A stretch of DNA of 64,000 bases from Thermodesulfobacteriota bacterium (GTDB lineage: Bacteria > Desulfobacterota_D > UBA1144 > Nemesobacterales > Nemesobacteraceae): the NCBI GenBank assembly GCA_965116075.1, contig OZ220467.1, positions 684,580 to 748,579 on the forward strand, in the 5' to 3' direction. Numbering within the stretch: the stretch's first letter is position 1; each line of letters begins with the position of its first letter. The notes beneath the pieces were generated by a model. That model was not told the origin of the DNA and did no database searches. It saw only the letters and a list, made by a program, of their open reading frames with translations. This document shows positions 3,293-55,400 of the stretch, piece by piece. The translations under genes and the position numbers were made by a program.

Positions 3293-4472
3293 CCCTAAAC
3301 TCTATGCGTTTACCACGTCCCCACAATCATCATACTATCCTGTCCGCTGAACTTTGCTGACCACGTTTACAATCGCTTCTTGAACCGAACACCCTCTGTT
3401 CTCCAGCGCTTGCTCAAATACTTCCTGGGGCGTACAGAATCCCAGAACTTTACGTGGACGATTATTCAGCAAGTCTTGTACTCGTTGTACCTCTGCATCT
3501 TTTAACCGACTCAAGTCCGTCCCCTTCGGCCAGTACTGCCGAATTAACCCATTGCTGTGTTCGCTCAACCCTCGCTCCCACGAATGAACGGTATCGCAAA
3601 ATAAAACCCAGCTCCCAATGCTTTAGATACATCCTCGTGATCCGCAAACTCCTTGCCGTTGTCAGACGTCAGCGTCAAACACAAATCCTTATTCGGCTTT
3701 AACTTCTTCTTTATCGCACCGCTTACTTCCTGCGCTGTCTTTCGCTTTACCTTCTGCATCAATACAAACTTTGACCCTCGCTCTACTAACGTCACCAACA
3801 CCCCACAATGCTTAGACCCTATCATCGTGTCAAACTCCCAGTCCCCAACCCGATTCTTCTCCTCCACCACCTCCGGTCGTTCCCTTATATCTATCCTGTT
3901 CTTTATCACTCCACGGCCTGCCCCCTTGCCACTACGGTTATACTTCTTCCCACGATGTCGTAGATGACAATATAGGTCGCCTCCTTGTTCACGGTCCTGC
4001 CAAATGTGTTGATATATCCTTGTATGGCTTATATCCACTACTCCTTCCATCTTCAAACGACCCGCTATCTGTTCAGGACTAAACTGATAAACTGTCAACA
4101 ACTCCTCTATTATCGTCAGCACCTCTGCTGTTATTTTGCGACAACACGATGACGCTTCTCTTCGCCTATTCTCTGATAGCTCTTGGGCCTGCTCGTGATT
4201 ATAACTTCTTCATCCATGATTCCTTCTCAGCTCCCAGCTGATCGCGGAAACAGAACGTCCAAGTCGCTTGGCAATCTGCCGAAGCGACAACCCCACACTA
4301 ATCATAATTTCTATCTGGACTCGTTCATCGCAACTAAGGTGATGATAGCATGATGACATAAGAGACTCCTCCTTTAGTACAGTCTCGGAGCGTATCACCA
4401 TCCCTCAGCCCTTTCAACTACTCGCTTTTAAGAACCCTCTTCGTTATAATCGTTGTGTTGCGCTTCGCAGTT
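3293..4472 (-). mobile_element. IS30-family insertion sequence (~1.18 kb) with frameshifted transposase
   Basis: It encodes an IS30 transposase in three consecutive minus-strand ORFs. The imperfect terminal repeats are cccctaaactctatgcg at 3293 and ccattaaactgcgaagcgcaac (revcomp) at 4449-4472. The element abuts the hsdS fragment. Confidence 0.75.
3335..4401 (-). pseudogene. IS30-family DDE transposase broken by two frameshifts (ORFs 4210-4401, 3565-4122, 3335-3568)
   Basis: The N-terminal HTH ORF contains RQIAKRLGRSVSAISWELRRN. The central ORF contains the DDE region WEFDTMIGSKHCGVLVTLVERGSKFVLMQKV. The C-terminal ORF contains GLIRQYWPKGTDLSRLKDAEVQRVQDLLNNRPRKVLGFCTPQEVF. All three are IS30 hallmarks. 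Confidence 0.8.
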
Positions 4473-4660: not shown

Positions 4661-5508
4661 AAAAAGAGCTCATCACCACACTTACAGATAATTTTGAGCT
4701 TCATGCCCAGCAGACCGAAATCGGTATTGAATACTGGCTTGCCCGTGATCTGCAGCACCTTCTGGGTTATGATCAGTGGCGAAACTTTGCTCAGGTGATT
4801 TCCAAGGCCAAAGTGGCTTGCGAAGTGAGTGGCCATGAAGTTTCAGACCATTTTGCTGACGTCGGCAAAATGGTCAATCTAGGTTCCGGCGGTAAGCGAG
4901 AGATCGATGATGTGATGCTCACCCGATACGCTTGCTATCTTATTGCCCAGAATGGCGATCCACGAAAAGAGCAGATTGCTTTTGCTCAGACGTACTTTGC
5001 CATGCAAACGCGCAGAGCTGAGCTGATCGAGCAACGTATCCTAGAGCAAGAACGCCTTTCTGTCCGTAAGAAGCTAATACAGACAGAAAAAGAACTCTCC
5101 GAGGTCATATACGAGCAAACAGAACAAGATCGCAACTTTGGGATTATTCGCAGCAAAGGTGACCAAGCGCTCTTTGGTAAAAGCACGCAGCAAATGAAAG
5201 CGCAGTGGAAAGTGCCTAACAGCCGCCCACTTGCTGATTTTGCACCAACCATCATCCTCAAGGCAAAAGACTTTGCTACGGAAATCACCATTCACAATGC
5301 CTGTGAGAAGAACATGAGCACTGAATCGGCTATATCCGGAGAACATATTACCAACAATCAGGCGGTACGCAGAACCTTGATTGAACGGGGCATCCGTCCT
5401 GATGCCTTGCCGCCATCAGAAGATATCAAGAAGCTAGAGCGACGCATTGCATCGCAGGAGAAGAAAGCACTTAAATCACCAGATAGTTTGGACAGTAATG
5501 ATGAGTAA
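4657..5508 (+). CDS. dinD: DNA-damage-inducible protein D (DinD) homologue, 283 aa
   Basis: GIEYWLARDLQHLLGYDQWRNFAQV, RYACYLIAQNGDPRKEQIAFAQTYFAMQTRR and other blocks align with E. coli DinD (GQEYWSARELAPLLGYRDWRNFQKV...RYACYLVVQNGDP...QTYFAIQTRR). AGGAGG lies 5 nt upstream of the ATG. The gene is embedded in the R-M locus remnant. Confidence 0.85.
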   Translation: MKKELITTLTDNFELHAQQTEIGIEYWLARDLQHLLGYDQWRNFAQVISKAKVACEVSGHEVSDHFADVGKMVNLGSGGKREIDDVMLTRYACYLIAQNGDPRKEQIAFAQTYFAMQTRRAELIEQRILEQERLSVRKKLIQTEKELSEVIYEQTEQDRNFGIIRSKGDQALFGKSTQQMKAQWKVPNSRPLADFAPTIILKAKDFATEITIHNACEKNMSTESAISGEHITNNQAVRRTLIERGIRPDALPPSEDIKKLERRIASQEKKALKSPDSLDSNDE

Positions 5509-6257
5509 GGTTGGAGCCATAGAGCGCGTTATGCGAAACCGCATCGTTAAACTGTTTAAAGAACAACTTGGATACGAATATCTGGGAGACTGGAAAGACC
5601 GCGCCGATAACAAAAACATTGAAATAAGCCTGTTAAAGCCATTTTTTCGGAAGCAAGGTTATAGCGAAAAGCTAATTGAACGCGCCTTGCGGGAACTGGA
5701 TAAAGCTGCCGCGCTTGGCGATGGCCGAAGCCTCTATGATGTCAACAAGGATGTTTACCGACTGCTGTGCTATGGCATCAAGGTCAAAGAAGGTGGCGGG
5801 GAGCAAAAAAACCGTCTGGTTGGTTAACTGGAAAAACCCGGAAAAGAATGACTTTGCTATTGCAGAGGAAGTCACCGTCAAAGGCAACAATACCAAACGC
5901 CCGGATGTGGTAATTTACCTCAACGGCATTGCCATTGGTGTGATTGAACTGAAACGCTCCATCATTGGTCTAACGGAAGGCATTTGCCAGAACCTGCTCA
6001 ATCAGCGCAGGGACTTTATCCGCCCATTCTTCACCACCATGTAGCTGGTGATGGCCGGAAACCATACGCAAGGCTTGCGCTATGACACTATCAAGACCAG
6101 CGAGAAGTATTATCTGGAATGGAAAGAAAATGGCGGCATTGGTAAATACAAACTAGATCGACACCTTTCCCTCATGTGTGAGAAGCGCCGTTTTCTTGAG
6201 TTGATCCATGATTTCATTGTATTTGAAGCTGGCACCAAAAAGATCTGCCGCCAGAAC
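5501..6257 (+). pseudogene. hsdR: Type I restriction enzyme HsdR, N-terminal ~250 codons; frameshifted near 5810, stopped near 6044, truncated by IS630 at 6257
   Basis: Three consecutive frames read MMSKVGAIERVMRNRIVKLFKEQLGYEYLGDWKDRADNKNIEISLLKPFFRKQGY..., then KKTVWLVNWKNPEKNDFAIAEEVTVKGNNTKRPDVVIYLNGIAIGVIELKRS (the classic HsdR N-terminal nuclease-domain motif), then a further fragment ending at the IS630 terminal repeat. Confidence 0.75.
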
Positions 6258-8437: not shown

Positions 8438-9686
8438 CTAGTGTTGCGTCAAGTAATGATTTTTGGATAGATGGACTTGAGTCTGCAGCGGGCATCGGCA
8501 ACCGACATACGCCAGTTCACACCACGCTGGCTTGCGTTGACACGTTGCGACCACGCCGCCACCTCAGCCCGCAACTCGTCCAGGTCCCCGATCCGTCGAC
8601 CCTTCAGACACTGCCGCGTCAGACAACTCAACTCGCACTCAGTCACGTTCAGCCAACTCGCGTGCTTCGGAGTGTACTGGAACTTGATGCGTTGCCTCAG
8701 CCGCCGCGCCCGCTCCGGCTCAAAAGCCTCGTACAACGCTCCCTGCGTGTGCGTGTTGAGGTTGTCCAGCACCAGCGTGACCATCTCGCAGTCTGCATAG
8801 TGACTCTCCAGCAGAGCCGCCACTTCCTCCGCCCAGTCCAACTTGGTGCGCCGCTCTCGCACCGTCACCGTGCGCCAACCTGCCAGCGGTTCATAGAACA
8901 GGAACACCGAGGCCATGCCGGCCCGCTGATACTCGTAGTCCACACGGCGCGGATACTCCATGGTTGCGGGCAATGGCTGGCGGGTTTCCCCCACCATCTG
9001 TACCGGCTGTTCGTCCATGCAAACCACTGGCCGCCGCTCATCATAAGGCTCCTCGTAGGTCGACAGAACATCTTCCATGGCCGCCACATACTCCCCGTCC
9101 GCCTTCGGCGGAATCACCCAGTACTGCAGGTAGCGTCCCGCTATACCGTTTTTTTTAATGTCTTGTTGACGGTTTCATGGCTGATCGATTCACAGATGCC
9201 GACCTCAACCGCCTCGCTTGCCAGCAGACGTAGCGACCATTGGCCGTAGCCAGAGCAGCCGGTGGCGGCCCCAACCGCAACGCGATCAGCGCGGCTTCCT
9301 GCCGCCCGTCCAGAAGCTTCGGCGGCCAGGTGGATGGGTCCCGTTGCCGCCCGTTGAGGGCCAACTCAAAACCTTCCAGCACGCAACATTTACGCACGTT
9401 CGCGACAGTACGCTCCTGACAACCGTAGGCCTCCGCAACCTAGTGGTCGCACCAGTTCGGCCCGTCCGCATCAACTTGTAGCAGAATACGCGCCCGGCGC
9501 GCTTTCTGACTGCTACCCTTGAGTTTATTGATGACCTCCTGACATGTTTTGCGTTCAGCCTCCGACAGGCGCACAATGTACTTCTTCATGGTTCCTCCTC
9601 CTTTGTTGTAGAAAGACGGCTTGGGACACGAAGCCCTCGCCTTGAAACACATTATACAAGAAATGTTGCCTTTGACGCAACACTAG
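8438..9686 (-). mobile_element. IS630-family insertion sequence, copy B (degenerate)
   Basis: Same terminal repeats as copy A and ~93-95% identity. The DDE ORF 8449-9117 is intact, but the N-terminal part is split into 9155-9397 and 9440-9652 by extra indels. Confidence 0.85.
8449..9652 (-). pseudogene. IS630-family transposase of copy B, multiply frameshifted
   Basis: The N-terminal ORF begins ...MKKYIVRLSEAERKTCQEVINKLKG, the middle fragment reads MRKCCVLEGFELALNGRQRD..., and the C-terminal DDE ORF is 222 aa. Confidence 0.75.
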
Positions 9687-9744
9687 TATTTCGGCATCGG
9701 GGAGGCGCAAGATGATATTCGCCGCCGTCAAGGTGGTATTATTT

Positions 9745-9860
9745 GGCGCCCATTAAATTGTGAAGCGCAACGAAACAATTATAACGAAGAGGGTTCTTAA
9801 AGGCGAGTAGTTGAAGGGACCAAGAGATGGTGATACGCTCCGAGACTGTACTAAAGGAGG
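9745..9860 (+). mobile_element. IS30 end fragment (~115 bp: terminal repeat plus first codons of the transposase), inverted relative to the IS30 at 3293-4472
   Basis: 9745-9860 is the reverse complement of 4360-4475 (ccattaaattgtgaagcgcaac...atggtgatacgctccgagactgtactaaaggagg), then diverges. Confidence 0.6.
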
Positions 9861-10142
9861 TTCGCCATTTCTAGAGCTTCAACCAAAAATGGATCAGGAT
9901 AATTCACAGACATACCATGAAACTGAACTAAGTACCTGTCTGATTCCGTTTTCTTTGGAACCCTGTTGTAAACGTAATCACCGAGGGGGGCGAGTTCTTA
10001 TACAAATGACCTTTGATCTGGAACCTTAAAAGAACTTGTTACGGCGGCGTTAAGCGTTTTCTCGCTAGGAGAATGCGGGGGTCATCGGGCAATTCGTCTA
10101 GTTTCTCCTACTCGCTTTGATAAAGTATATTATCCGATCAAT

Positions 10143-11243
10143 ATGGAACTCGGATATTTCTCAATACCTCTTCATCCTGCCGGTTCTCCGCTTTTTCTGA
10201 CGCTTGACCAAGACCTAGAGCAGATGGTCTTTCTTGACCAGGTTGGTTTTTCAGAAGTGTGGATAGGGGAGCATTTCACCGCAGGTTGGGAGAATATCGC
10301 GGCCCCCGATCTGTTCATAGCGAAAGCTTCTACTCTTACGGAAAAAATAATATTTGGTACAGGTGTTTCCTGTTTACCTGAGCATGACCCTTTTATGCTT
10401 GCGCATAGAATCGCGGTTCTAGACAATCTGCTCAAGGGAAGGTTCTACTGGGGTGTGGGAGCGGGAAGTTTTATAGGGGATTTTGAGGCATTTGGCATAA
10501 ATCCAAAAACAGGAGAGCAGAGACAACTGATGAATGAAGCGCTTGAGGCGATACTGGACCTCTGGGATAACCCTACTCCGGGTACGTATAGTGGCTCAAA
10601 GTGGAGGTACACGGTTCCTAATCCTGTGGAAGAAGTTGGTCTCGGAGTGCACACAAAACCTTTCCAAAAGCCTCATCCTCCCATAGCTGTCGCGGGGATT
10701 TCTGAAGGTTCTTTGAGTCTGAAAACAGCGGGGGAGCACGGCTGGATGCCGATGAGCATAAATTTTGTGATTCCAGATGTCCTTAAATCTCACTGGGAGA
10801 TGTACGAGCAGGGAGCTTTTGCTGTGGGAAATAGTAATCCTGACAGGAAAAAATGGAGAATCTCAAGGGATATTTACGTGGCGGATACAACAGAGCAAGC
10901 TAGAAGGGATGTTAAGGGAAGCACTTTAGCAAGAGATTTCCGTGATTATTTTTTCAAGATAGTTCCAATGATAAGAAAAAACCTAGACTTGTTCAAAATT
11001 GATAAGTCAATGCCTGATAGTGAAGTTACGATTGACTATATGATTGACAACATGTGGCTTGTCGGAAGTCCAGAAGATGTAGCCGCAAAGATAGTACGGC
11101 TTTACGAATTTGTTGGAGGATTCGGAGTGCTTTTGGTAATGGGACACGAATGGAATCCAAAAGAGAAATGGGAGAAGTCTCTGACTCTTCTTAGAGAACA
11201 AGTCATTCCCATGGTGAAAAAGAATCTACGGGTAAAGGACTAA
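10143..11243 (+). CDS. LLM-class (luciferase-like) flavin-dependent oxidoreductase
   Basis: 366 aa containing GEHFTAGWENIAAPDLFIAKASTLTEKIIFGTGVSCLPEHDPFMLAHRIAVLDNL, typical of bacterial luciferase-like monooxygenases. Confidence 0.85.
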   Translation: MELGYFSIPLHPAGSPLFLTLDQDLEQMVFLDQVGFSEVWIGEHFTAGWENIAAPDLFIAKASTLTEKIIFGTGVSCLPEHDPFMLAHRIAVLDNLLKGRFYWGVGAGSFIGDFEAFGINPKTGEQRQLMNEALEAILDLWDNPTPGTYSGSKWRYTVPNPVEEVGLGVHTKPFQKPHPPIAVAGISEGSLSLKTAGEHGWMPMSINFVIPDVLKSHWEMYEQGAFAVGNSNPDRKKWRISRDIYVADTTEQARRDVKGSTLARDFRDYFFKIVPMIRKNLDLFKIDKSMPDSEVTIDYMIDNMWLVGSPEDVAAKIVRLYEFVGGFGVLLVMGHEWNPKEKWEKSLTLLREQVIPMVKKNLRVKD

Positions 11244-17329: not shown

Positions 17330-17606
17330 GATGGAGCTGCAGAGATTTGTCAAAATTGCGGCGTTAGCGGTAGTTGTTCTCGTTGTGGGCGCTTTATTTT
17401 TTCGCGAGATATCTGAGCTCTTTATGCTGAAGAATGAAAACAAAAAAATAGAAAAAAACATAGAGGAACTCAGAAAGCAGAACGAAGAGTACAGACGGGA
17501 GATAGAAGCTGTAAAAAATGACAAGAAATACCTTGAGAAAATACTTAGAGAAGATCTCGGAATGATAAAAGAACGGGAAAAAATATTCAGGTTCAATGAA
17601 GAATAA
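17330..17606 (+). CDS. ftsB: FtsB/DivIC-like septum formation initiator (short TM plus coiled coil)
   Basis: MELQRFVKIAALAVVVLVVGALFF has one TM helix and is followed by a heptad-rich NENKKIEKNIEELRKQNEEYRREIEAVKNDKKYLEKILREDLGMIKEREKIFRF. The tracked ORF 17151-17606 overlaps the MBL gene, so ATG 17330 is preferred. Confidence 0.6.
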
Positions 17607-18850
17607 CGCATTGGATCTGACTAACTCTGTATCTCTCTAAATTCTGCATAATCTCTTAGCAGAGCCGAGATGTAAAAACTTCTGTAAAACCGCAATTTAA
17701 GTTCACCTGTCTATTTCTTGAGGCATTTGAGTTATAGCGATTTTTGGGGAGTGGTTTTGACGTAATGAGGACATATGAACAGTATGTTCACCACTGTTTG
17801 AGTCCGTATTGATTCGTATTTGAGTAATCTGACGGGCGGATTTCTTGATTTCCCCGCAGTTTGCTGCTGATTTCCGCCCAATTATCAGCCTTTGGGCGCA
17901 ACAATCCATTCACCGTCATTGCCGCTAAATTCCTCTGGTCAAATTTCCGTATTACCCGTATTACTGAGAAAAACCTTACCAACCTGAGGATGACGCCCAG
18001 AAACAAGAGACCTCATCTTGTCAGCCTTTGAGGTTATTTGTTCTATAGAATTCCTAAGCTTGTACCCCCTCTCCCATATTACAGAACCATGCGGAGTCGG
18101 CGTAAAAATACGAGGTTTCTTCTCCAACGAGACGCGTATTGATAATCCATATTCACTGTTCTTACGACCCGTATCTTTGTGACGCTTCTTCCTGCCTATA
18201 CAATTCAGTTTATGCGCTGCCGGAGAACAACGAAACTTCAAGGTCCCTCGCTTATCTTCACGTTCCCCCCTCACCAACTTACTCTTGGTCTTGTGTTGTA
18301 GGACAGCGACACCAACCCTCGCCCTCCTCCATGTAGAATGTGTTGTTAATATCTTCTCAAAAGTCTTATGATCTTTTGCCCAGCGAAATAGTCCTAATTC
18401 TGCTTCTCCTGCCTACACATAATGATTTATATCAATAATTGGGGTCAGTTCTATATTCATTCCAAAACTTTCTCTTCAATTCTCTACTGTCAAGCCCCGG
18501 GTCCCCCGCTGAAATATTCGCATTGCTCCACCAACTCACGGTTCTGTGGAAGCAACTTGTCTATCATCCTGCCCAACTCCTTAACCTCTGACACAGAAGC
18601 ATTGGTAAGACTCATCTAGTATCTCATATTTGCTATCGCCAATTACGTGCAGTTTATAACCAAACGACTTTGATTTCTCTACGATTGAGCCAACCTAGAA
18701 CCGAACTCTATTACTCACATACAACCGAGAAAGGAAAGATAGACACACCAGTGACAACGTACTTGGCAAGACAGAAACCAAAAAATGCAGAGTCCTTCTT
18801 CAAAAGTGATTTCCTTATGCTATGTCCGAAAAAGTATGGGGTTGAAAACA

Positions 18851-19333
18851 CTATGACAACTCAAGCATCTTTTTCAGTCGAATACCACTTTGACTGAGTT
18901 GCCTGGCCTGAGGAGAGTTTTTTGGCATTTTCATGCTACCGCTGGCAATCCAGGTATATCGAATATCTTTATTGGTGCGGGCGGTCATCTTTTTGAGTTG
19001 TTCAGCATCTTTATTCAACCAGTCTTTTAGCCATTGTAATTTTTTGAGAACCGCTGAAACTTCCTTTGTCGTAGCCGGATGAACCTCTACCCAAACTGCC
19101 CATTGGCTCTTATGCTTTGGATGTTTATATCCTATACCATAGTCCCATCGGGGCGAATTAGCGTGGCGAGGCTCAAGTTTAAGAGCCAAGTCGAGATTTA
19201 TACTTCCTGTCAATCGTCGCGGGTTTGCGCATTTTATCAATTTCCCGTGCTTTTTACCTGATGCTTGCTTTTCACTTCGGTATGCGCAGTTCACCGGATG
19301 TGACGTAGACCTCACCGCATCTTTGAAATTCAT
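18851..19333 (-). CDS. 160-aa partner protein of the upstream ATPase (RloB/DUF4276-like?)
   Basis: Its start overlaps the ATPase stop by 4 nt (translational coupling). The product is basic, with no TM helix or signal peptide, and has no strong motif. Confidence 0.55.
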   Translation of the reverse strand: MNFKDAVRSTSHPVNCAYRSEKQASGKKHGKLIKCANPRRLTGSINLDLALKLEPRHANSPRWDYGIGYKHPKHKSQWAVWVEVHPATTKEVSAVLKKLQWLKDWLNKDAEQLKKMTARTNKDIRYTWIASGSMKMPKNSPQARQLSQSGIRLKKMLELS

Positions 19334-20517
19334 AATCCTTTAGATAATCCCTTCCCGGCTACTTCGGCGACAACATCTCCAACTCTTCCGGAAAACTCTG
19401 TCAGACCACCCCACCCCTCTTCGGCAACGTTCTTTGAGCCGGGATCAAGGTTTGATATATCACAAACCTTACCATCGCGTTTAAAGTAGTAAGTCTTAAA
19501 TTTGCTTTTGAGCGAACAGGTTGCGAGATCTTTTGTCTTTTGCGTACTGGGAAGATTAAGAAGTTTGACAATATCTCCAGAACTACCGCCATTTTTTTGC
19601 AAGAATTGGATTGCCCAAACGATATCAAGAACATGAGACGAATGCGTGGAGAGACAAATCCGATAACCTCGTAGTCGCAACTCCAAGATAAGGTTGATCA
19701 CAGCGCCAATACCGTTTGGATGCAAACCCATCTCAGGCTCTTCAATTACTACCCATTCAAGTTTTTCGCGCTTAGCTACCTTTGATGAGGGTAAAAGCCA
19801 GTAGATCCCAAGTAATAACGGTACGAACTCTCGCTGCCCAGCTGACCAAACCAAGTATGGTAGAGCATGTTCAGCATCTGCGCGTGCACGTAACACTAAG
19901 CGGCTTTGGTGGTATCTAGACGTTTGAGTACGAAGACGAAACCCACCGAAGATGTGCTCTTCAATCGGTCCTCGTAGAACCTTATCTAGCCGTTGGGAAC
20001 GCGGAAAAACTTTCTCATTAAAACCAATCTCATTCTGCACTATATAATGGAGTTTATCGCCAAAGTCTCGCAGAACGAATGGGTCGCCCGCTTTGAAGTC
20101 GGAAAACGGATATGGCATACCGTCTCGTAAACTCATGACTCGTTGAGCTGGAATATAAAACATTTTTTCTGAAGGTATAACTCTTGGCGTACGAGAATGA
20201 GTTAAGGTTGATATTTTGACTTCCTTTTGCGAATTGCCCAAAAACAGGCGGCTCTTTTCTTTTGACCAAATTGAGGACATCCCTTCCCCAAGGTACAGAT
20301 CAAAGAAACTATGGAAATTATCATCTTGATCTTTGATCACCAAACCAGACTTGCGCATAGTTTGGTGTATCGCCTGTTTGTCTTCAAGAAGTTTTAGAAG
20401 TTGCAAAAAGATGCTTTTTCCAGTGGCTTGTGGTCCGACAAATATAGTCAGATCACCAAACCTTACGTCCGCTTCCTTGATCGGTCCGATTTCATGCGCT
20501 CTTATCCGTTTAATCAT
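19330..20517 (-). CDS. AAA_21/AAA_15-type ABC-like ATPase (OLD/PtuA/AbiL-like family)
   Basis: Walker A FVGPQATGKS, Walker B-like VVIEEPEMGLHP and H-loop LSTHSSHVLD, 395 aa. This is the architecture of ATPases found in two-gene phage-defence systems. Confidence 0.85.
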   Translation of the reverse strand: MIKRIRAHEIGPIKEADVRFGDLTIFVGPQATGKSIFLQLLKLLEDKQAIHQTMRKSGLVIKDQDDNFHSFFDLYLGEGMSSIWSKEKSRLFLGNSQKEVKISTLTHSRTPRVIPSEKMFYIPAQRVMSLRDGMPYPFSDFKAGDPFVLRDFGDKLHYIVQNEIGFNEKVFPRSQRLDKVLRGPIEEHIFGGFRLRTQTSRYHQSRLVLRARADAEHALPYLVWSAGQREFVPLLLGIYWLLPSSKVAKREKLEWVVIEEPEMGLHPNGIGAVINLILELRLRGYRICLSTHSSHVLDIVWAIQFLQKNGGSSGDIVKLLNLPSTQKTKDLATCSLKSKFKTYYFKRDGKVCDISNLDPGSKNVAEEGWGGLTEFSGRVGDVVAEVAGKGLSKGL

Positions 20518-21265
20518 ACTCTTTGTATCGCCTTAACTATAACTCCGCATCATACCACAGATTACAACTACAAACTTACACGCTAAAAACTCGCCAATTA
20601 AACTATAAAATATAACACACAAAAAAGCCGAGGCATTTGCGCTGTCCAAAATGTGGATGCATATCAAAGGCTTTTAGAAGCCCCCAAAATACCCAAAAAA
20701 AGTCCTAAAATCGGCTAATGTAAGCCAAACCCCACAAATTCACTCCTCACTAAAATCGGTTGATATAACCTCTGTAAAAATTCCCCAAAAATAGAAATAA
20801 CTTGATAATCTCACTTGTTTTTAATGTCACTATAAAAGCGTCTTCATAGGTTGAAATTATAATTTGCTAGCAGAATCTTCTCTTCTCCTATAAGAGTGAG
20901 TGAATGTTGTTTTTGGTCATCCTCAAGGAAAAAGCCCCCACCCCAAAATCGTTGTAGCGTAATTATCTCAAGTTAACAACAAATTTATCATCTACAAAAG
21001 AAGTAAACCCGTAGCGGTTCCACAATCATCAAAGGGAATCAGCATCAAGCATCACTACATCGCAAATGCCTTTTTCTTTTTTTAGCTTTGCTCCTTTAGT
21101 TGATTTGTTATTCTTTGCGGTACGCTTTTTAGTTGGTAAAGTCCTTGAGAGTAAATTTTCAAGAATTGCGCGCAGGGCTGAGTTTGGAAAAAAGTCTAAT
21201 CAATGTCAGATGCGAAAAATGACTTTACAATTTTTTTTGTATCTGAGGGTGCCGGAGAATAAAAG

Positions 21266-22102
21266 ATGGATGACGCTGAGAGAGCAGAGGTATTTTATCA
21301 GAGAAAGAAACTCGGACAGAATTTCCTGAGAGACAAAAACGTTCTCCGCAAAATCTGCGATGTGGCGCAACTGCGTGAACAAGACGCAGTAATTGAGATT
21401 GGACCGGGAAAAGGGTCCCTAACCGAACATATCGCAAACCGCGCGGCAACGGTTATTGGAATTGAAAAAGACGACAGGCTTTGGTCTTTTCTTGATCAAA
21501 AATTCAAAGATTCCAAAAATATATCAATTCTCTATCAAGACGTTCTTCAGACCCGTTTTGAGCGATTTTTTTCTGGGGATAGAATAAAACTGGTTTCAAA
21601 CCTTCCCTATAACATTTCCACCCCTGTGTTGCTAAAGATATTTGAAGAGAGAAGACTTTTTTCAAAAATAGTAGTGATGTTACAAAAGGAAGTGGCGCAG
21701 AGAATATCTTCCCCTAGTGGAAGCAAAACCTATGGATCGCTATCTGTAGTTCTGCAGAGTTGCTTTGCGGTGAAATTGCGCTTTGAGGTTTCTCGTCATC
21801 TGTTCTTTCCTACCCCCAAAGTGGATTCAGCAGTAGTGACTCTTGATCCTCTGCCAGAGGATTTGCTTACTTCTACATGTGAAGAGACTTTCAGAACTGT
21901 CGTAAGGCAGGCGTTTTCATCACGTAGAAAGACATTGAGAAATTCACTCGGTAGTTTTTTCACAAAGGATGTGGCCCAACGCGCGCTTGCAGACTCGGAG
22001 ATAGACTATGGTAGGAGAGCAGAGTCTCTTTCAGTAGAAGAATTTGTGAGACTTTCACAGAGCTTTTGCCAGATAATCAATACACAAGCTCCCGTAAAAT
22101 AA
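21266..22102 (+). CDS. rsmA: 16S rRNA (adenine1518/1519-N6)-dimethyltransferase
   Basis: LGQNFLRDKNVLRKI...EIGPGKGSLT...SNLPYNISTP are the canonical KsgA/RsmA motifs. Confidence 0.9.
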   Translation: MDDAERAEVFYQRKKLGQNFLRDKNVLRKICDVAQLREQDAVIEIGPGKGSLTEHIANRAATVIGIEKDDRLWSFLDQKFKDSKNISILYQDVLQTRFERFFSGDRIKLVSNLPYNISTPVLLKIFEERRLFSKIVVMLQKEVAQRISSPSGSKTYGSLSVVLQSCFAVKLRFEVSRHLFFPTPKVDSAVVTLDPLPEDLLTSTCEETFRTVVRQAFSSRRKTLRNSLGSFFTKDVAQRALADSEIDYGRRAESLSVEEFVRLSQSFCQIINTQAPVK

Positions 22103-46400: not shown

Positions 46401-49400
46401 ACATACCGGATCACGCTTAGCGATGCCGACGGCTATGCGGTTGGCGACGATGTGACGGCTGACGGCACGTTGAACGACGGCGCGGCGACGCCCTGCAAGG
46501 TGTCGGTGACGAACTACCGCGCGATTGACGACAGTGGTTTTCTGCCGGTTTACTCGATTTCGTTCGGTTTGCGGATACCGGCGAACTGTGGTCCGATCAC
46601 GGGGATGCAGCGTCAGATCAAGACCTTGAGTCAGGGCTGGGGCGATGTGGAGTGGGTGGACCTGGAGAATGCGGGTCTGCGTACGTTTGCTAACAGCGCC
46701 ACTGCCAGGACGCCTTCCGGAATCGAGCTGGTCTTCCTGAATTCCGGCAGCGGCAAGCATCAGGTTCGGGTGCGCGCGCAGAACGGCGCGCGAGTCGGTC
46801 CGGCATCCGACGAGGTGTCGGTGACGTTCGAAGTCCCGCCCACACCGAGCGGGCTGAGCGCGACCCCTGGCGCTGCCTCGGTGACGCTGACCTGGAATGC
46901 GCAGTCCGGGGAGCAGATCACGTCGTGGAACGTCCAGTACAAGCGGGGTTCCGAGTCGTACCGGAACCTGCACGTGGCGGATGCCGGGGACGGCAGCACG
47001 ACGACGGCTACGGTGACGGGTCTGTCGGCAGAGGAGTACACGTTCCGTTTGCAGGCTAGGAACGAGAACGGTCTGAGCGCGGCCTCGTCGACGGTGACGG
47101 CGACGCCGACAGCAGCGACCGTGGTTCCGCCCGCTCCGACGGGCGTGAGGGCGACGGGGGGTGACGGCGAGGTGACGCTGTCGTGGACCGACCCGCAGAA
47201 CGATACGATCACGAAGTGGCAGTACCGGCAGAAGACGGGTAGCGGCGCTTACGGTGAGTGGACGGACCTTGAGCACAGCCGGACACGTAGCGCGTTTCCG
47301 ACGCTGACGGGTACGGTTGGTGATCTGACGAACGGGAGTTCGTATACGTTCGAGCTTCGCGCGGTGAACGGTGTCGGCGCTGGCGCGGCTTCTTCTGAGG
47401 TTACGGTGACGCTGGGCGCGGATGCGGATGCGGTATCGCTGAGCGTTGCGGACCTGACGGCGGCGGAGGGCGGTACGTTCGCGTTCACGGTGACGGCGAC
47501 GCCTGCGCCGGCCTCGGAGATCAGCTTCAAGTACACGGTGACGGCGGAGACCGGCGATACGGCGACTGCCGATACGGATTTCACAGAGGTTGATACGGCG
47601 ACCGAGGTGACGATTGCGGCGAACGCGACCACGGCGACGATAACGGTGTCGGTGACGGATGACGATCTTGATGAGGACAATGAGACGTTTACGGTGACGT
47701 TGTCAGAGCAGACCTCCGGGGTGACGCTCTCTGACGCCACTGCGACAGGGACGATAACGGATGATGATAATTCCCCGGTATTGGAAGATATAGAGGATTT
47801 AACGATAAGGCTGGGGCAGTCGGTGGATATAACTGCGGTGGCGACGGATGCGGACGACGATGACATCGGCTATGTCTGGACGCGTAAGTCCGGGGAGACG
47901 TCCCCTGCGATACCTGGTAGCGCGGATCTGGAAGTGGCTCGGTTGATGTTCAAGTCTACCTCGGTGGGTACGTACACGATGACGGTGACCGCATCTGACG
48001 GCAATGGGAACAGCGATACGGAGGAAGTGGAGATCACGGTGGTACGGGCGCGCGTGGTCTCGGTGCCGGCGACGCTGTCGGTGGCGGAGGATGATGGCGA
48101 TGCGGTGGTGACGGTGACGACGGAGGGCGCGTTTGGTGAGAATGTGACGTTTAACGTGACGTACGGTGGTACGAGCGCGACGGGGCACAACGACCCTGCC
48201 AGCGGCGACTATGACAATGATGCGGTGACGGCGATAACGTTTGGAGCGGGCGACCTGACAAAAGACATTGAGGTGCCGATAACGGATGATAATCTTGAAG
48301 AGGCTGATGAGACGTTCACGGTGACGATTGCCCCTGCGACCGCCACGCTGCCTGATGGTTTCGCAATGGGAGATGCCACGACGACGGTGACGATAGAGGA
48401 CAATGATACGCAAGCGCCGTGTAAGGTGGAGGTGGTGGATGTATCAACGACGGCGGATGCCAGTCCGTTCCCCGGCGGTCAATCAATTTACTCAATATCG
48501 TTTAAGGTGAGGATACCTGCGGATTGCGGCGCTATAACCAATATGCAGAGGCGTATAAAGACGAACGGGCAGTGGGGTGAATGGACGGATAATGAGGTGT
48601 TGCGCAGTTTTGCTGACAGCGCTACGGCAAGGACGCCTGCGGAGATGGAGTTGATACTCGTAGCGGATGGTAGCGCGAGGGAGGTGCAGGTTCGGGCGTT
48701 AAACGGTAGTAAGACAGGTCCTGAGTCAGAAGCTGTTGGCGTCACGTTTACCGCGCCGGGCAAGCCGGGTGGTTTGAGCGCTACAGGCGGGGCTGGTTCC
48801 GCAGCGTTGAGTTGGGATGGGCAGACGGGAGAGCAGATCACGGCATGGGTGGTGGAGTACAAGCGTGGTTCAGAGAGTTATAAGAGTAAGGTGATAGTGG
48901 ATGCTGGAGATGGTAGCGCTACAGCGACGACTATCACGGGTTTAGCGTCTGAGGAATACACTTTTCGTATAAAGGCGCGTAATCCAAACGGAGACAGTCC
49001 TTATTCAGATGAGACGACAGCTACGCCAGAGGCGGTGACCGCTGCTCCTGCGGCGCCGACGGGAGTGACGGGCAGTCCGGGGGACGGGGAAGTGAGGTTG
49101 GAGTGGGCAGACCCAGAAGATGCGAACATAACGAAGTGGCAATATGAGCAGAAGGCCGGTAGCGGCGCTTATGATGGGGCTTGGACGGACATCACGGTAT
49201 CAAAGAGCGGATCTCTTTCCAGGTTAACGGGTACGGTCACGGGTTTGACAAATGGCGTCAGTTATACGTTTAAGGCGCGCGCGGTGAATAGCGCGCTAAA
49301 TAGCGCTGTCGCCGGCTCGGGCAACGGCGCGGAATCGGATGAGGTGACGGTAGTGCCGATAGCGGCGCCGACGGGATTAACGGTGACGCCTGCGGGCAGT

Positions 49401-52400
49401 GGCAAGTTGCGTTTGAGGTGGACGGCGCCGACGGATGCGTCCCGTACGGGATGGGAGGTTAGGCACAGGGCGTCTGGAGGTGAATGGGGTGAGTGGGCTG
49501 CCATAACGGGCGCGGGTACGACGAGTCATCTTCTTACGGGATTAACGACGGGGACTTACTACAGGGTGCAGGTTAGAGCGGTGAACGGTAATGTAAAGAG
49601 CGCGACGGCGTTTGGTACTGCGGAGGTGAGAGGGACCGTATCGTTGAGCGTTGCGGACGTGACGGCTGCGGAGGATGGCGCGTTCGCATTCACGGTGACG
49701 GCGACGCCTGCGCCGGCTTCGGATATAAGCTTTAAGTACACGGTGACGGCGGAGAGTGATGACACTGCGACTGCGGGTACGGACTTCACGGCGGTTGAGA
49801 CGGCGACCGAGGTGACGATTGCGGCGGGTGAGACCACGGCGACGATAACGGTTGTGGTGACGGATGATGACATTGATGAGTCGGATGAGACGTTCACGGT
49901 GACGTTGTCAGACCTTCCGGAATGGGTGGAGTTGGGTGATCCCACCGCGACAGGGACGATAACGGACAACGATGAGACGCCAGCGCCGTGTAAGGTGGAG
50001 GTGGTGGATGTATCAACGACGGCGGATGCCAGTCCGTTCCCCGGCGGTCAATCGATTTACTCAATATCATTTAAGGTGAGGATACCTGCGGATTGCGGCG
50101 CTATAACCAATATGCAGAGGCGTATAAAGACGAACGGGCAGTGGGGCGAATGGACGGATAATGAGGTGTTGCGCAGTTTTGGGGACAGCGCTACGGCAAG
50201 GACGCCTGCGGAGATGGAGTTGATACTCGTAGCGGATGGAAGCGCGAGGGAGGTGCAGGTTCGCGCGTTAAACGGTAGTAAGACAGGTCCTGAGTCAGAA
50301 GCTGTTGGCGTCACGTTTACCGCGCCGGGCAAGCCGGGTGGTTTGAGCGCTACAGGCGGGGCTGGTTCCGCAGCGTTGAGTTGGGATGGGCAGACGGGAG
50401 AGCAGATCACGGCATGGGTGGTGGAGTACAAGCGTGGGTCAGAGAGTTATAAGAGTAAGGTGATAGTGGATGCTGGAGATGGTAGCGCTACAGCGACGAC
50501 TATCACGGGTTTAGCGCCTGAGGAATACACTTTTCGTATAAAGGCGCGTAATCCAAACGGAGACAGTCCTTATTCAGATGAGACGACGGCTACGCCGGGC
50601 GCGGTGACCGCTGCTCCTGCGGCGCCGACGGGAGTGACGGGCAGTCCGGGGGACGGGGAAGTGAGGTTGGAGTGGGCAGACCCAGAAGATGCGAACATAA
50701 CGAAGTGGCAATATGAGCAGAAGGCCGGTAGCGGCGCTTATGATGGGGCTTGGACGGACATCACGGTATCAAAGAGCGGATCTCTTTCCAGGTTAACGGG
50801 TACGGTCACGGGTTTGACAAACGGCGTCAGTTATACGTTTAAGGCGCGCGCGGTAAATAGCGCGCTAAATAGCGCTGTCGCCGGCTCGGGCAACGGCGCG
50901 GAATCGGATGAGGTGACGGTAGTGCCGATAGCTGCGCCGACGGGATTAACGGTGACGCCTGCGGGCAGTGGCAAGTTGCGTTTGAGGTGGACGGCGCCGA
51001 CGGATGCGTCCCGTACGGGATGGGAGGTTAGGCACAGGGCGTCTGGAGGTGAATGGGGTGAGTGGGCTGCCATAACGGGCGCGGGTACGACGAGTCATCT
51101 TCTTACGGGATTAACGACGGGGACTTACTACAGGGTGCAGGTTAGAGCGGTGAACGGTAATGTAAAGAGCGCGACGGCGTTTGGGACTGCGGAGGTGAGA
51201 GGGACCGTATCGTTGAGCGTTGCGGACGTGGAGGCTGCGGAGGATGGCGCGTTCACGTTCACGGTGACGGCGACGCCGGCGCCGGCTTCGGATATAAGCT
51301 TTAAGTACACGGTGACGGCGGAGAGTGATGATACTGCGACTGCGGGTACGGACTTCACGGCGGTTGAGACGGCGACCGAGGTGACGATTGCGGCGGGAGA
51401 GACCACGGCGACGATAACGGTTGTGGTGACGGATGATGACATTGATGAGTCGGATGAGACGTTCACGGTGACGTTGTCAGACCTTCCGGAATGGGTGGAG
51501 TTGGGTGATCCCACCGCGACAGGGACGATAACGGACAATGATGAGACTCCTGCGCCGTGTAAGGTGGAGGTGGTGGATGTATCAACGACGGCGGATGCCA
51601 GTCCGTTCCCCGGCGGTCAATCGATTTACTCAATATCGTTTAGGGTGAGGATACCTGCGACTTGCGGCGCTATAACCAATATGCAGAGGCGTATAAAGAC
51701 GAACGGGCAGTGGGGCGAGTGGACGGATAATGAGGTGTTGCGCAGTTTTGGGGACAGCGCTACGGCAAGGACGCCTGCGGAGATGGAGTTGATACTCGTA
51801 GCGGATGGTAGCGCGAGGGAGGTGCAGGTTCGGGCGTTAAACGGTAGTAAGACAGGTCCTGAGTCAGAAGCTGTTGGCGTCACGTTTACCGCGCCGGGCA
51901 AGCCGGGTGGTTTGAGCGCTACAGGCGGGGCTGGTTCCGCAGCGTTGAGTTGGGACGGGCAGACGGGAGAGCAGATCACGGCATGGGTGGTGGAGTACAA
52001 GCGTGGTTCAGAGAGTTATAAGAGTAAGGTGATAGTGGATGCTGGAGATGGTAGCACTACAGAGGCGACTATCACGGGTTTAGCGCCTGAGGAATACACT
52101 TTTCGCATAAAGGCGCGTAATCCAAACGGAGACAGTCCTTATTCAGATGAGACGACGGCTACGCCAGAAGCGGTGACCGCTGCTCCTGCGGCGCCGACGG
52201 GAGTAATGGGCAGTCCGGGGGACGGGGAAGTGAGGTTGGAGTGGGCAGACCCAGAAGATGCGAACATAACGAAGTGGCAATATGAGCAGAAGGCCGGTAG
52301 CGGCGCTTATGATGAGGCTTGGACGGACATCACGGTATCAAAGAGCGGATCTCTTTCCAGGTTAACGGGTACGGTCACGGGTTTGACAAACGGCGTCAGT

Positions 52401-55400
52401 TATACGTTTAAGGCGCGCGCGGTGAATAGCGCGCTAAATAGCGCTGTCGCCGGCTCGGGCAACGGCGCGGAATCGGATGAGGTGACGGTAGTGCCGATAG
52501 CGGCGCCGACGGGATTAACGGTGACGCCTGCGGGCAGTGGCAAGTTGCGTTTGAGGTGGACGGCGCCGACGGATGCGTCCCGTACGGGATGGGAGGTTAG
52601 GCACAGGGCGTCTGGAGGTGAATGGGGTGAGTGGGCTGCCATAACGGGCGCGGGTACGACGAGTCATCTTCTTACGGGATTAACGACGGGGACTTACTAC
52701 AGGGTGCAGGTTAGAGCGGTGAGTTCTAATGGAAGAAGCGCGACGGCGTTTGGTACTGCGGAGGTGAGAGGGACCGTATCGTTGAGCGTTGCGGACGTGG
52801 AGGCTGCGGAGGACGGCGCGTTCGCATTCACGGTGACGGCGACGCCTGCGCCGGCTTCGGAGATAAGCTTTAAGTACACGGTGACGGCGGAGAGTGATGA
52901 CACTGCGACTGCGGGTACGGACTTCACGGCGGTTGAGACGGCGACCGAGGTTACGATTGCGGCGGGTGAGACCACGGAGACGATAACGGTTGTGGTGGCG
53001 GATGATGACATTGATGAGTCGGATGAGACGTTCACGGTGACGTTGTCAGACCTTCCCGAATGGGTGGAGTTGGGTGATCCCACCGCGACAGGGACGATAA
53101 CGGACAATGACAATTCACCTGTGGTGGCGGCGATAGAGGATAAGACGATTAGTTTGGGGCAGCCGGTGGATATAACGGCGTCTGCGACGGATGCGGACAG
53201 TGGCGATACGATCAGCTACGCATGGACGCGTAAGTCCGGGGAGACGTCCCCTGCGATACCGGATGGCACGGCGCTGGACGCTGCGCGGTTGATGTTCACG
53301 CCGCTTGCGAAGGGTAAGTACACGATGACGGTGACTGCAAGTGACGGCAACGGCAACACGGGCGTTGAGGAAGTGACGGTCACGGTAAGCGATAAGGGTA
53401 CGGTGTCGGTGTCGCCGACGGCGTCGGTGACGGAGGGTACGGACGCGGCGGCGGTGAGGGTAACGGCTTCGTCGGCGTTGGGTAAGTCTGTGACGTTTAA
53501 CGTGACGTATGGTGGTACGAGCGCGACGGGGCACAACGACCCTGCCAGCGGCGACTATGACAACGATGCGGTGACGGCGGTAACGTTTGGAGCGGGTGAT
53601 CTGACAAAAGACATTGCAGTGCCGATAACGGATGATGATCTGGACGAAGATGACGAGACGTTCACGGTAACAATCGCCCTGGCGGGGGGCAGTTCGCTGC
53701 CTGCGGGTTTTGAGTTAGGGAATGTCCGAACGACGGTGACGATAACGGATGATGATAGTTCTCCGGAGTTGGAGGAGATAGATGATAGTACGGTGAAGCG
53801 AGGGGGTGAAGTGGACATCACTGCGGTGGCGACGGATGCGGACGGTGATACGGTGACGTACGCCTGGACGCGCAAGGCGGGTGAGACGTCACCGGCGCTT
53901 CCGAACGGCGTGGCGTTGAATGCGGCTCGTCTGACGTTCACTACGACCGAGGTGGGTAAGTACACGATGACGGTGACGGCATCTGACGGCAATGGGAACA
54001 GCGATAGTGAAGAGGTGGTGATAACGGTCAGTAACCCTCCCGCAAAGCCTAAGGGGTTTGAAGTCAGTGCGGGCAACGCGCGTGTGGTGTTGTCGTGGAG
54101 AGACCCTGAAGACGATAGCATAACCGGTTGGGAGATGCGGCAACGGAAGGGTAGCGCGTCTTGGGGGCAGTGGGCAGGCATTGCGGATTCCGACGCTGAT
54201 ACTACCACTCACGCGGTGACGGGGCTTACGAACGGTAGCGAGTACCGTTTTCAGATACGAGCGGTGAACGACGCTGGTAAGAGTAAACCGTCGCCGGCGC
54301 TGGCAGCGACGCCGAAGGAGAGTTTGCTGGTCAAGCCGGTGTTGACGGCGACTGGTGGCGACAGATCAGTGACATTGAGTTGGACGCACCCGGACACGGG
54401 GATTACCAGTTGGGTTTACCAGTACAAAAGCGGTACGCAGGAGTGGAGTACGGACCGACAGGAGACTATAACAGGAGGGAGCGGGACGAGCAAAGTGGTG
54501 ACGGGGCTTACGAACGGAACGGAGTACATGTTCCGCGTATTCGTTCGCGCAGGGCTGACGTCGCAATCCGGATGGTCGTCGGAGGCGACGGCGACGCCGG
54601 GCGCGCTTACGATTTCCGTGGAGGCTATGACGGTGGAGGAGGGGGATTCCGGGGAGACGCCGATGGATTTTCAGGTGAGGTTAAGCGGTTCTCCGAGCGA
54701 TAGGGTGGAGATAGAAGTTACGGCGTGGGCGAAGGGGGTTACGGGAGCGGCGGCAAAGGGAGGTAAAGGGGCTGGTCAGGATTTCATAGGGTTTAGGGCT
54801 CGGAGGATAGTTTTTGCCGCAGGCGCGACGGGCGCTGATTTAAGTAAGACGGTGCGAGTGAAGGTATTGGGAGATGAGGTGGATGAGGAGGATGAGAAGT
54901 TTATCCTGCGACTCAACTATATACGTACTAATTTGACAGGCGTGGGTTTTGCGGGAGGTGAGTCCAAGTTGGAAGTGACAGGCACGATAACGGATGATGA
55001 TGAGGCTACGGCTAGCGGGCATGAGATTTCGGTAGAGGATGTGACGATAGCCGAGGGTGACGTGGGAGAGAAGGAGATGAGTTTCACGGTGACGCTAAGC
55101 GGGACTCCGAGTCACGAGGTGGGGATAGAAGTTACGGCGTGGGCGAAGGGAGTTACGGGAGAGGCGGCTAAGGGAGGCAGGGGGCCTGGGCGTGATTTCA
55201 TAGGTTTTAGGGCTCGGAAGATAGCTTTTGCCGCAGGCGCGACAGGCGCTGGTCTAAGTAAGACAGTGCGAGTGAAGGTACTGGGAGATGAGGTGGATGA
55301 GGAAGATGAGGAGTTTATCCTGCTACTCAACAACCTAAGGACGGAAGATACCCGCGTGGTTTTTGCGGGAGGTGAGTCCAAGTTGGAAGTGACAGGCACG

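Follow-up and report, generated by a model that had tools for sequence, protein, structure and literature searches.

Between two housekeeping genes of a Thermodesulfobacteriota genome, a divIC/ftsB-type gene and rsmA, lies a pair of overlapping genes encoding an ATPase and a small basic protein, and the locus raises the question of what this pair does and how it came to be there. The reference DNA was a window of 64 kb (the whole stretch that was analysed, to which all coordinates refer), in which the intergenic region between the divIC/ftsB-type gene and rsmA covers 17607-21265. A first-pass annotation had proposed a candidate two-gene defence system in this region, and the two open reading frames, the ATGA stop/start overlap and the ATPase motifs quoted there are all present in the sequence or its translation. 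The features of the pair are as follows:

19330..20517, minus strand: PDC-M56A, ABC-type (AAA_15/AAA_21) ATPase of 395 amino acids, here protein A (open reading frame list, PADLOC-DB, Pfam)
18851..19333, minus strand: PDC-M56B, basic protein of 160 amino acids with a predicted PD-(D/E)xK-like fold, putative nuclease effector, here protein B (PADLOC-DB, structure prediction)
19330..19333, minus strand: ATGA stop/start overlap of genes A and B (junction sequence)

From the observed family membership, fold, conservation, linkage, variable context and insertion we infer defence, nuclease activity and a complex of proteins A and B, and we consider it probable that the pair is a horizontally acquired, ATPase-controlled nuclease defence module. 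By its profile matches the pair is a member of PDC-M56, a candidate system already catalogued in PADLOC-DB, with the two genes adjacent and in the order A then B. Protein A matched PDC-M56A with an E value of 2.9e-137 (455.7 bits, residues 3-387 on positions 2-378 of 382 of the model). Protein B matched PDC-M56B with an E value of 1.9e-42 (142.8 bits, residues 2-158 on positions 7-149 of 151), and this was its sole match in PADLOC-DB, for which partner hits were reported up to E 1. The proposal of a candidate two-gene defence system was thus supported by matches over the full length, while the pair turned out to be less novel than had been implied. PDC stands for "phage defence candidate"; the 145 PDCs, which were described as untested, were predicted by guilt-by-embedding, as cassettes embedded in BREX, DISARM or type I restriction-modification (RM) loci, and PDC-M56 is listed in the supplement as cassette CAS_00181, FAM_00005>>FAM_02395 (Payne et al., bioRxiv 10.1101/2024.01.29.577857). 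Neither PDC-M56 in the text of a paper nor a description of the B protein was found in the searchable literature. What is added here is the fold and probable active site of protein B, the quantified linkage and coupling of the two genes, an empty-site comparison and possible terminal repeats.

The assignment of protein A to the AAA_15/21-type ATPases was confirmed by Pfam, since both families scored above their gathering thresholds (AAA_15: 49.9 bits, threshold 32.1; AAA_21: 49.1 bits, threshold 27). The translation contains the Walker A motif FVGPQATGKS, the Walker B motif VVIEEPEMGLHP and the H-loop STHSSHV, as well as the Q-loop PAQR and the ABC signature SAGQ. In an alignment of 43 homologues the listed residues of Walker A (G28-x4-G33-K34-S35) and of the signature (S225-x-G227-Q228) were invariant, as were the Walker B acids E259, E260 and E262 and the H-loop residue H292; the Q-loop (P123-A-Q-R126) was invariant save for Q125, which was at least 90% conserved. 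Protein A is only 395 amino acids long and has no C-terminal extension, and its Pfam coverage is confined to the ABC motifs, with no other effector domain. Profile scans with Pfam, PADLOC-DB and NCBIfam-type models gave no match to Toprim, DUF4276 or RloB in protein A or B.

Protein B is strongly basic (isoelectric point 10.3; 32 lysines and arginines versus 12 aspartates and glutamates) and matched no family in Pfam, NCBIfam or PHROG; neither Pfam nor PADLOC revealed an HNH domain at E up to 1. Its earlier description as a basic partner devoid of a recognised domain, which is neither HNH nor Toprim nor RloB, therefore held. Structure prediction had been proposed as a way to look for a minimal nuclease fold, and such a fold was found. 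The AlphaFold2 model, calculated from a 119-sequence alignment, reached a predicted local distance difference test score (pLDDT) of 93.4 and a predicted template modelling score of 0.88, and displays the alpha-beta-beta-beta-alpha-beta core that is characteristic of restriction-endonuclease-like proteins. Fold comparison yielded matches with moderate scores that include single-domain proteins of the nuclease fold (2okf, 3fov, 4zqu), and therefore protein B matches the nuclease fold itself and not a partner domain. The top list of Foldseek comprised FokI, MspJI, HamA, Card1 and BamHI, none of them significant (no E value below 0.1), and a viral fold library gave nothing significant. Clustering at 90% identity placed the family of protein B in 227 clusters, and a profile search of 1.84 billion representatives retrieved 1,117 clusters at 50% identity (E up to 1e-3). 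Its members are almost all stand-alone proteins of 145-180 amino acids, and many of their hosts are uncultured and have symbiont-type genomes. Protein P0171, considered as a natural fusion of A and B, looks like a frameshifted read-through and was set aside as uninformative; P0249 is likewise an apparent fusion.

Residue conservation in protein B was scored on 141 divergent representatives (clusters at 50% identity). S44, D64, E83 and H85 were found in all 141, K98 in 140, and position 48 is aspartate or glutamate in 140. D64 directly precedes strand 2, and E83-x-H85 lies 19 residues further on within strand 3, which is the usual position and the canonical spacing of a D...(D/E)xK motif. The lysine slot of (D/E)xK is occupied by the invariant H85, and the near-invariant K98 sits on the next helix. 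These patterns suggest that D64, E83-x-H85 and K98 form the putative active site, and with the predicted fold we infer that protein B is probably an active, metal-dependent nuclease. Within residues 59-120 the family profile showed a weak, recurring match to the N-terminal domain of the aminopeptidase PepB (NCBIfam PRK05015, E 4e-4; PDB 6oad, E 1.3e-3), where conservation is lacking at the positions aligned to D64, H85 and K98. Protein B could instead be non-enzymatic, a sensor or adaptor that has a degenerate endonuclease fold and binds nucleic acid, with the ATPase or a host factor as the acting component. The histidine at the lysine position and the modest fold scores speak for this explanation, as does the PepB similarity, which suggests that the scaffold can be non-catalytic. 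We nevertheless regard it as unlikely, as the near-complete conservation of the five residues has the form of an active site and would hardly be expected of a surface that only binds, and the ATPase carries no other effector domain.

To describe the pair as a unit, a degenerate-pattern scan with one genome per species was used, which gave 79 distinct loci from many phyla. Gene A was located directly upstream of gene B on the same strand in 78 of them, the exception being at a contig end. Sixty-nine intact A-B pairs were available for junction analysis; 51 of these show a stop/start overlap, which is 4 nucleotides (nt) long in 43, and the ATGA overlap of the reference pair is read as implying translational coupling of A and B. 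The pairwise identities of the A proteins correlate with those of the B proteins (r = 0.86). Relative to the copy in the nearest relative, the ratio of non-synonymous to synonymous substitution rates (dN/dS) was 0.09 for A and 0.17 for B, with 0.16 for rsmA as comparison. Both genes are under purifying selection, and with hundreds of homologues and a low dN/dS they are therefore not chance open reading frames. Nor did the small protein give a confident match to a non-defence function, which the first-pass annotation had named as a result that would speak against its proposal.

No third conserved gene was present among the neighbours in the 79 loci. The nearest neighbours, which change at almost every locus, belong to 56 Pfam families upstream and 86 downstream, mostly metabolic or housekeeping. 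DISARM DrmMI or type IIG methylases account for 3 of 73 upstream neighbours, and a handful of downstream neighbours match PDC-S01, mad3, DpdF, DarT or PD-T4-6 models. One copy of the pair resides on a mobilizable plasmid of Opitutaceae bacterium TAV5. The pair could also be a selfish addiction or stabilisation module similar to toxin-antitoxin systems, with no anti-phage role: protein B would act as a toxic nuclease that protein A holds in check in an ATP-dependent manner, and the pair would be retained because cells that lose it die. The pair is a small, tightly coupled two-gene cassette that occurs by itself at numerous unrelated positions and in one case on a plasmid, the insert described below carries inverted repeats at its ends, and the Pfam label of AAA_21 mentions the AbiEii type IV toxin-antitoxin system. 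However, the family was defined from copies inside DISARM, BREX or RM operons, a placement that fits defence better, and addiction and abortive infection are not sharply separated, so that the choice between them is partly a matter of naming. We consider a purely selfish module improbable.

Some genomes hold altered or second copies of the pair. A Terriglobia genome (L013) carries a truncated second copy, comprising the C-terminal two-thirds of A together with B at 91% identity, which is separated from the intact pair by about 4.6 kb (copies at 4672-5908 and 9267-10504), and loci L020 and L021 constitute a 12.8-kb duplicate with 99.9% identity. These second copies were considered as markers of a small element, and neither delimits one. 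In L006 the ATPase gene is split by an insertion of about 5 kb (3784-4086 and 9096-9983), and the ATPase genes of L028, L031, L035 and L074 are frameshifted. With the ATPase gene interrupted in several genomes, the cassette therefore decays in some of them.

The site was compared with that of three relatives, L081 (the nearest), L083 and L084. The DivIC/FtsB-type gene ends at 17606 and rsmA starts at 21266; in relatives, the syntenic genes carry the Pfam annotations DivIC and RrnaAD. The most similar RsmA (79% identity) is encoded in OZ242002.1, a Thermodesulfobacteriota metagenome-assembled genome, in which the order thrC, MBL hydrolase, divIC, rsmA, dacB, polA is identical. One of the RsmA homologues with 65% identity carries the label Candidatus Dadabacteria, and the host therefore probably belongs to that lineage. 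In blastn, synteny with L081 breaks at 17700 and picks up again at 21233. When 17721-21071 was excised, the remaining 311 nt of intergenic DNA were colinear with the empty site of L081, with about 25 unmatched bases at the junction. The gap between divIC and rsmA is 262-265 nt in the nearest relative, with no gene in between, and 67 and 75 nt in L083 and L084, so that the site is free of the insert in all three relatives. The nearest relative keeps its own PDC-M56 pair between tsaB and ilvB (82% protein identity for A, 73% for B). The segment of about 17721-21071 is most likely horizontally acquired DNA that was inserted between divIC and rsmA. It is composed as follows:

17721..21071, no strand: inserted segment of about 3.35 kb, left edge somewhere in 17704-17721 (synteny with the empty site)
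17721..17746, plus strand: left arm of a possible imperfect terminal inverted repeat (AGGCATTTGAGTTATAGCGATTTTTG), 20 of 26 positions complementary to 21046-21071
17747..18850, no strand: unassigned stretch of about 1.1 kb downstream of the small gene, within the insert, no family match
20518..21045, no strand: A/C-rich leader upstream of the ATPase gene, within the insert (composition), containing the repeat core for a third time (20631-20641)
21046..21071, minus strand: right arm of the possible imperfect terminal inverted repeat, pairing with 17721-17746

The first-pass annotation had described an island flanked by an ftsB-like gene and rsmA, with about 1.2 kb of degenerate DNA on one side and an A/C-rich spacer on the other. 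Flanks and composition were confirmed, and the foreign DNA between housekeeping genes is real, but it extends from about 17704/17721 to 21071 and does not fill the whole of 17607-21265. Conservation of the pair in core-genome synteny, which had been named there as evidence to the contrary, was not found: the site of the nearest relative is empty and its own copy lies elsewhere. The patchy distribution, the variable neighbours and the empty site in close relatives also argue against a core role as an accessory of DNA repair or recombination, comparable to SbcCD or RecN/RecF-type machinery. Matches to such families stayed far under their cut-offs (12.5 bits versus 408 for RecN), and this explanation is poorly supported and very unlikely.

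The inverted repeat of 26 nt with 20 complementary positions was matched by none of 300 shuffles and by one of 300 real-sequence control window pairs. The test is suggestive only, because its windows were picked after the repeat had been seen, and it is possible that terminal inverted repeats bound the insert. The core 11-mer, AGGCATTTGCG, occurs at 20631-20641 (plus strand) and 21061-21071 (minus strand) and, with one mismatch, at 17721-17731 (plus strand); with one mismatch allowed, the whole window contains 6 matches versus 1.1 expected. The copies at 20631 (plus) and 21071 (minus) face each other over 441 bp and could form a small nested repeat-bounded element. The leader is compositionally biased (20518-21000: 37% A, 23% C, 12% G). 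A promoter and terminator scan of 17500-21400 returned fewer matches than shuffled sequences and hence no signal above chance. No tRNA gene was found anywhere in the window, and no Rfam family reached its gathering score in or around the insert; a sub-threshold Histone3 match (E 0.066) was treated as noise.

An endonuclease-fold protein together with an ATPase is loosely reminiscent of TnsA with TnsC, and proteins A and B might themselves mobilise a small transposon-like element. When compared with the nearest copy (L002), however, the DNA is similar over exactly the two open reading frames and only up to their borders, with no shared terminal sequences. The core of the repeat is missing beside the pair in the other loci, and the ATPase is of the ABC type and not AAA+. 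Own mobility of the pair is accordingly poorly supported, and we rate it as highly improbable. For the same reasons, namely that DNA similarity stops at the borders of the reading frames and the core is absent elsewhere, flanks common to all copies were rejected as a mark of a mobile element.

No open reading frame with a detectable relative was present in 17607-18850, and the stop-free fragments of 17747-18850 matched nothing in Pfam or NCBIfam. The longest stop-free stretch in this DNA has 157 codons (17942-18412, minus strand), and the source record lists a piece of 111 amino acids from it as a protein. A search of 5.8 billion proteins with this stretch found only its own genome, and tblastn against plasmids gave one weak, unannotated match (E 4e-3, 29% identity over 54% of the query). 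No similarity was observed between 17747-18850 and the flanks of 80 homologous loci. This stretch may be a decayed remnant of the carrier of the cassette. A decayed transposase was considered here and is unsupported, as family, plasmid and protein-database searches gave none.

A second cassette is located close to the equivalent site in L083, whose RsmA is 65% identical: an AAA_15/AAA_21 ATPase (440 amino acids) and an RloB protein (203 amino acids) are inserted between rsmA and dacB (L083:9070-11003), one gene from the insertion point of the window. It may be that cassettes of this type land repeatedly near rsmA in this lineage. With an AAA_15/21 plus RloB pair near the same site, the RloB kind and the PDC-M56 kind are therefore distinct.

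Among characterised systems, HEC-02 has the same architecture, an ABC ATPase followed by a partner with a restriction-endonuclease fold. HEC-02, consisting of an ABC ATPase and a NERD PD-(D/E)xK protein, confers phage protection that depends on both genes. The HEC-02A model matches protein A (E 3.5e-10, residues 1-297), whereas HEC-02B gave no match to protein B up to E 1 and NERD was absent in the Pfam scan; the motif also differs, as protein B has a putative D...ExH site with a helix lysine and HEC-02 has (D/E/Q)xK. Apart from PDC-M56A, the PADLOC ATPase models that matched protein A were far weaker (Menshen NsnB, HEC-01A, AriA, HEC-02A, Old, GajA). NsnB was the best named one (E 6.3e-18, residues 1-350 on 1-323 of 345), and NsnB and protein A are both OLD-type ABC ATPases. 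Menshen consists of the three genes NsnA-NsnB-NsnC, with a ParB-DUF262 sensor and an inPIN-plus-nuclease effector, and its NsnB has DUF3696 and degenerate motifs (EN in Walker B, R for Q, a GxG signature) (PMC12065111). In contrast, the insert holds two genes, DUF3696 gave no Pfam match in the pair, and the Q-loop, SxGQ and EE motifs are canonical.

PARIS, Septu, Gabija, OLD and AbiL/RloB share the AAA_15/21 ABC ATPase class of protein A and the two-gene logic of ATPase plus nuclease, and the AriA, Old, GajA and ATPase-Toprim models match protein A at its C-terminal Walker B/H-loop region. The nuclease partners are different: Toprim is found in AriB, the C-terminus of GajA, OLD and RloB, and HNH in PtuB, while protein B is neither. 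The PD-(D/E)xK effectors Can2/Card1, Cap4, HamA and Shedu SduA are only 6-14% identical to protein B in sequence. Their fusion or interaction partners are CARF, SAVED or helicase sensors and not an ABC ATPase, whereas protein B is a bare domain of 160 amino acids.

By analogy with HEC-02, PARIS, Septu and Gabija, the ATPase A would assemble with the nuclease B and keep it inactive. A phage-derived cue, read via ATP binding or hydrolysis, would then release or activate B, which would cut nucleic acid and halt the replication of the phage, perhaps at the expense of the cell. Several points weigh against an ATPase-controlled nuclease defence module. No experimental test of PDC-M56 was found in the searchable literature, and the related candidate HEC-01 gave no protection in one study and some in another; candidate status therefore does not predict activity. 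Catalysis by protein B is not assured, because a histidine takes the place of the canonical lysine of (D/E)xK, and the single-sequence structure model of the ATPase reached a pLDDT of only 37. Most copies are solo amid housekeeping genes, with about 10% of the immediate neighbours defence-related, and the pair was not found in phage genomes, so that there is no direct tie to phage biology.

Beyond the reference locus, it is quite possible, and we propose it tentatively, that PDC-M56 is a genuine and very widespread immune system, with about 1,100 clusters at 50% identity in at least 10 bacterial phyla. Its effector would be an undescribed minimal branch of the restriction-endonuclease fold with a D...E-x-H site and a lysine on a helix, a dedicated ABC ATPase would activate it, and the system would have arrived here on a small, non-autonomous element bounded by inverted repeats.

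Outside the locus, the right part of the window is occupied by a single open frame of at least 35,636 nt (11,878 codons; 28365-64000, plus strand, frame 3) that runs off the window end. According to Pfam it contains dozens of fn3, Calx-beta, PKD and Ig-like repeats, and the product looks like a giant adhesin-like protein. At the start of this gene the GC content rises from about 43% (1-28000) to 57-71% (28000-64000), with a strong excess of G over C. Long direct repeats are located at about 48400-53500 and 56090-62400, with units of 1569 nt (at least 3 copies, 96-97% identity) and 2088 nt (3 copies), and a unit of 414 nt is present in 2.1 copies at 54669-55537. The long open reading frames on the minus strand over this gene (686, 918 and 1067 amino acids) have no Pfam matches and are probably its shadows.

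The pair offers ready targets for experiments: D64, E83, H85 and K98 in protein B, K34 and E260 in protein A, and a clean natural pair of insertion and empty site. If the pair is not protective, one more candidate would be struck from the lists produced by bulk genome surveys. If it is, an untested database entry would become a named defence family with about 1,100 clusters of the small subunit in many phyla. An ABC ATPase combined with a bare endonuclease-fold protein of 160 amino acids would then represent a very compact ATPase-plus-nuclease design, and would help to show how such ATPases control their effectors.

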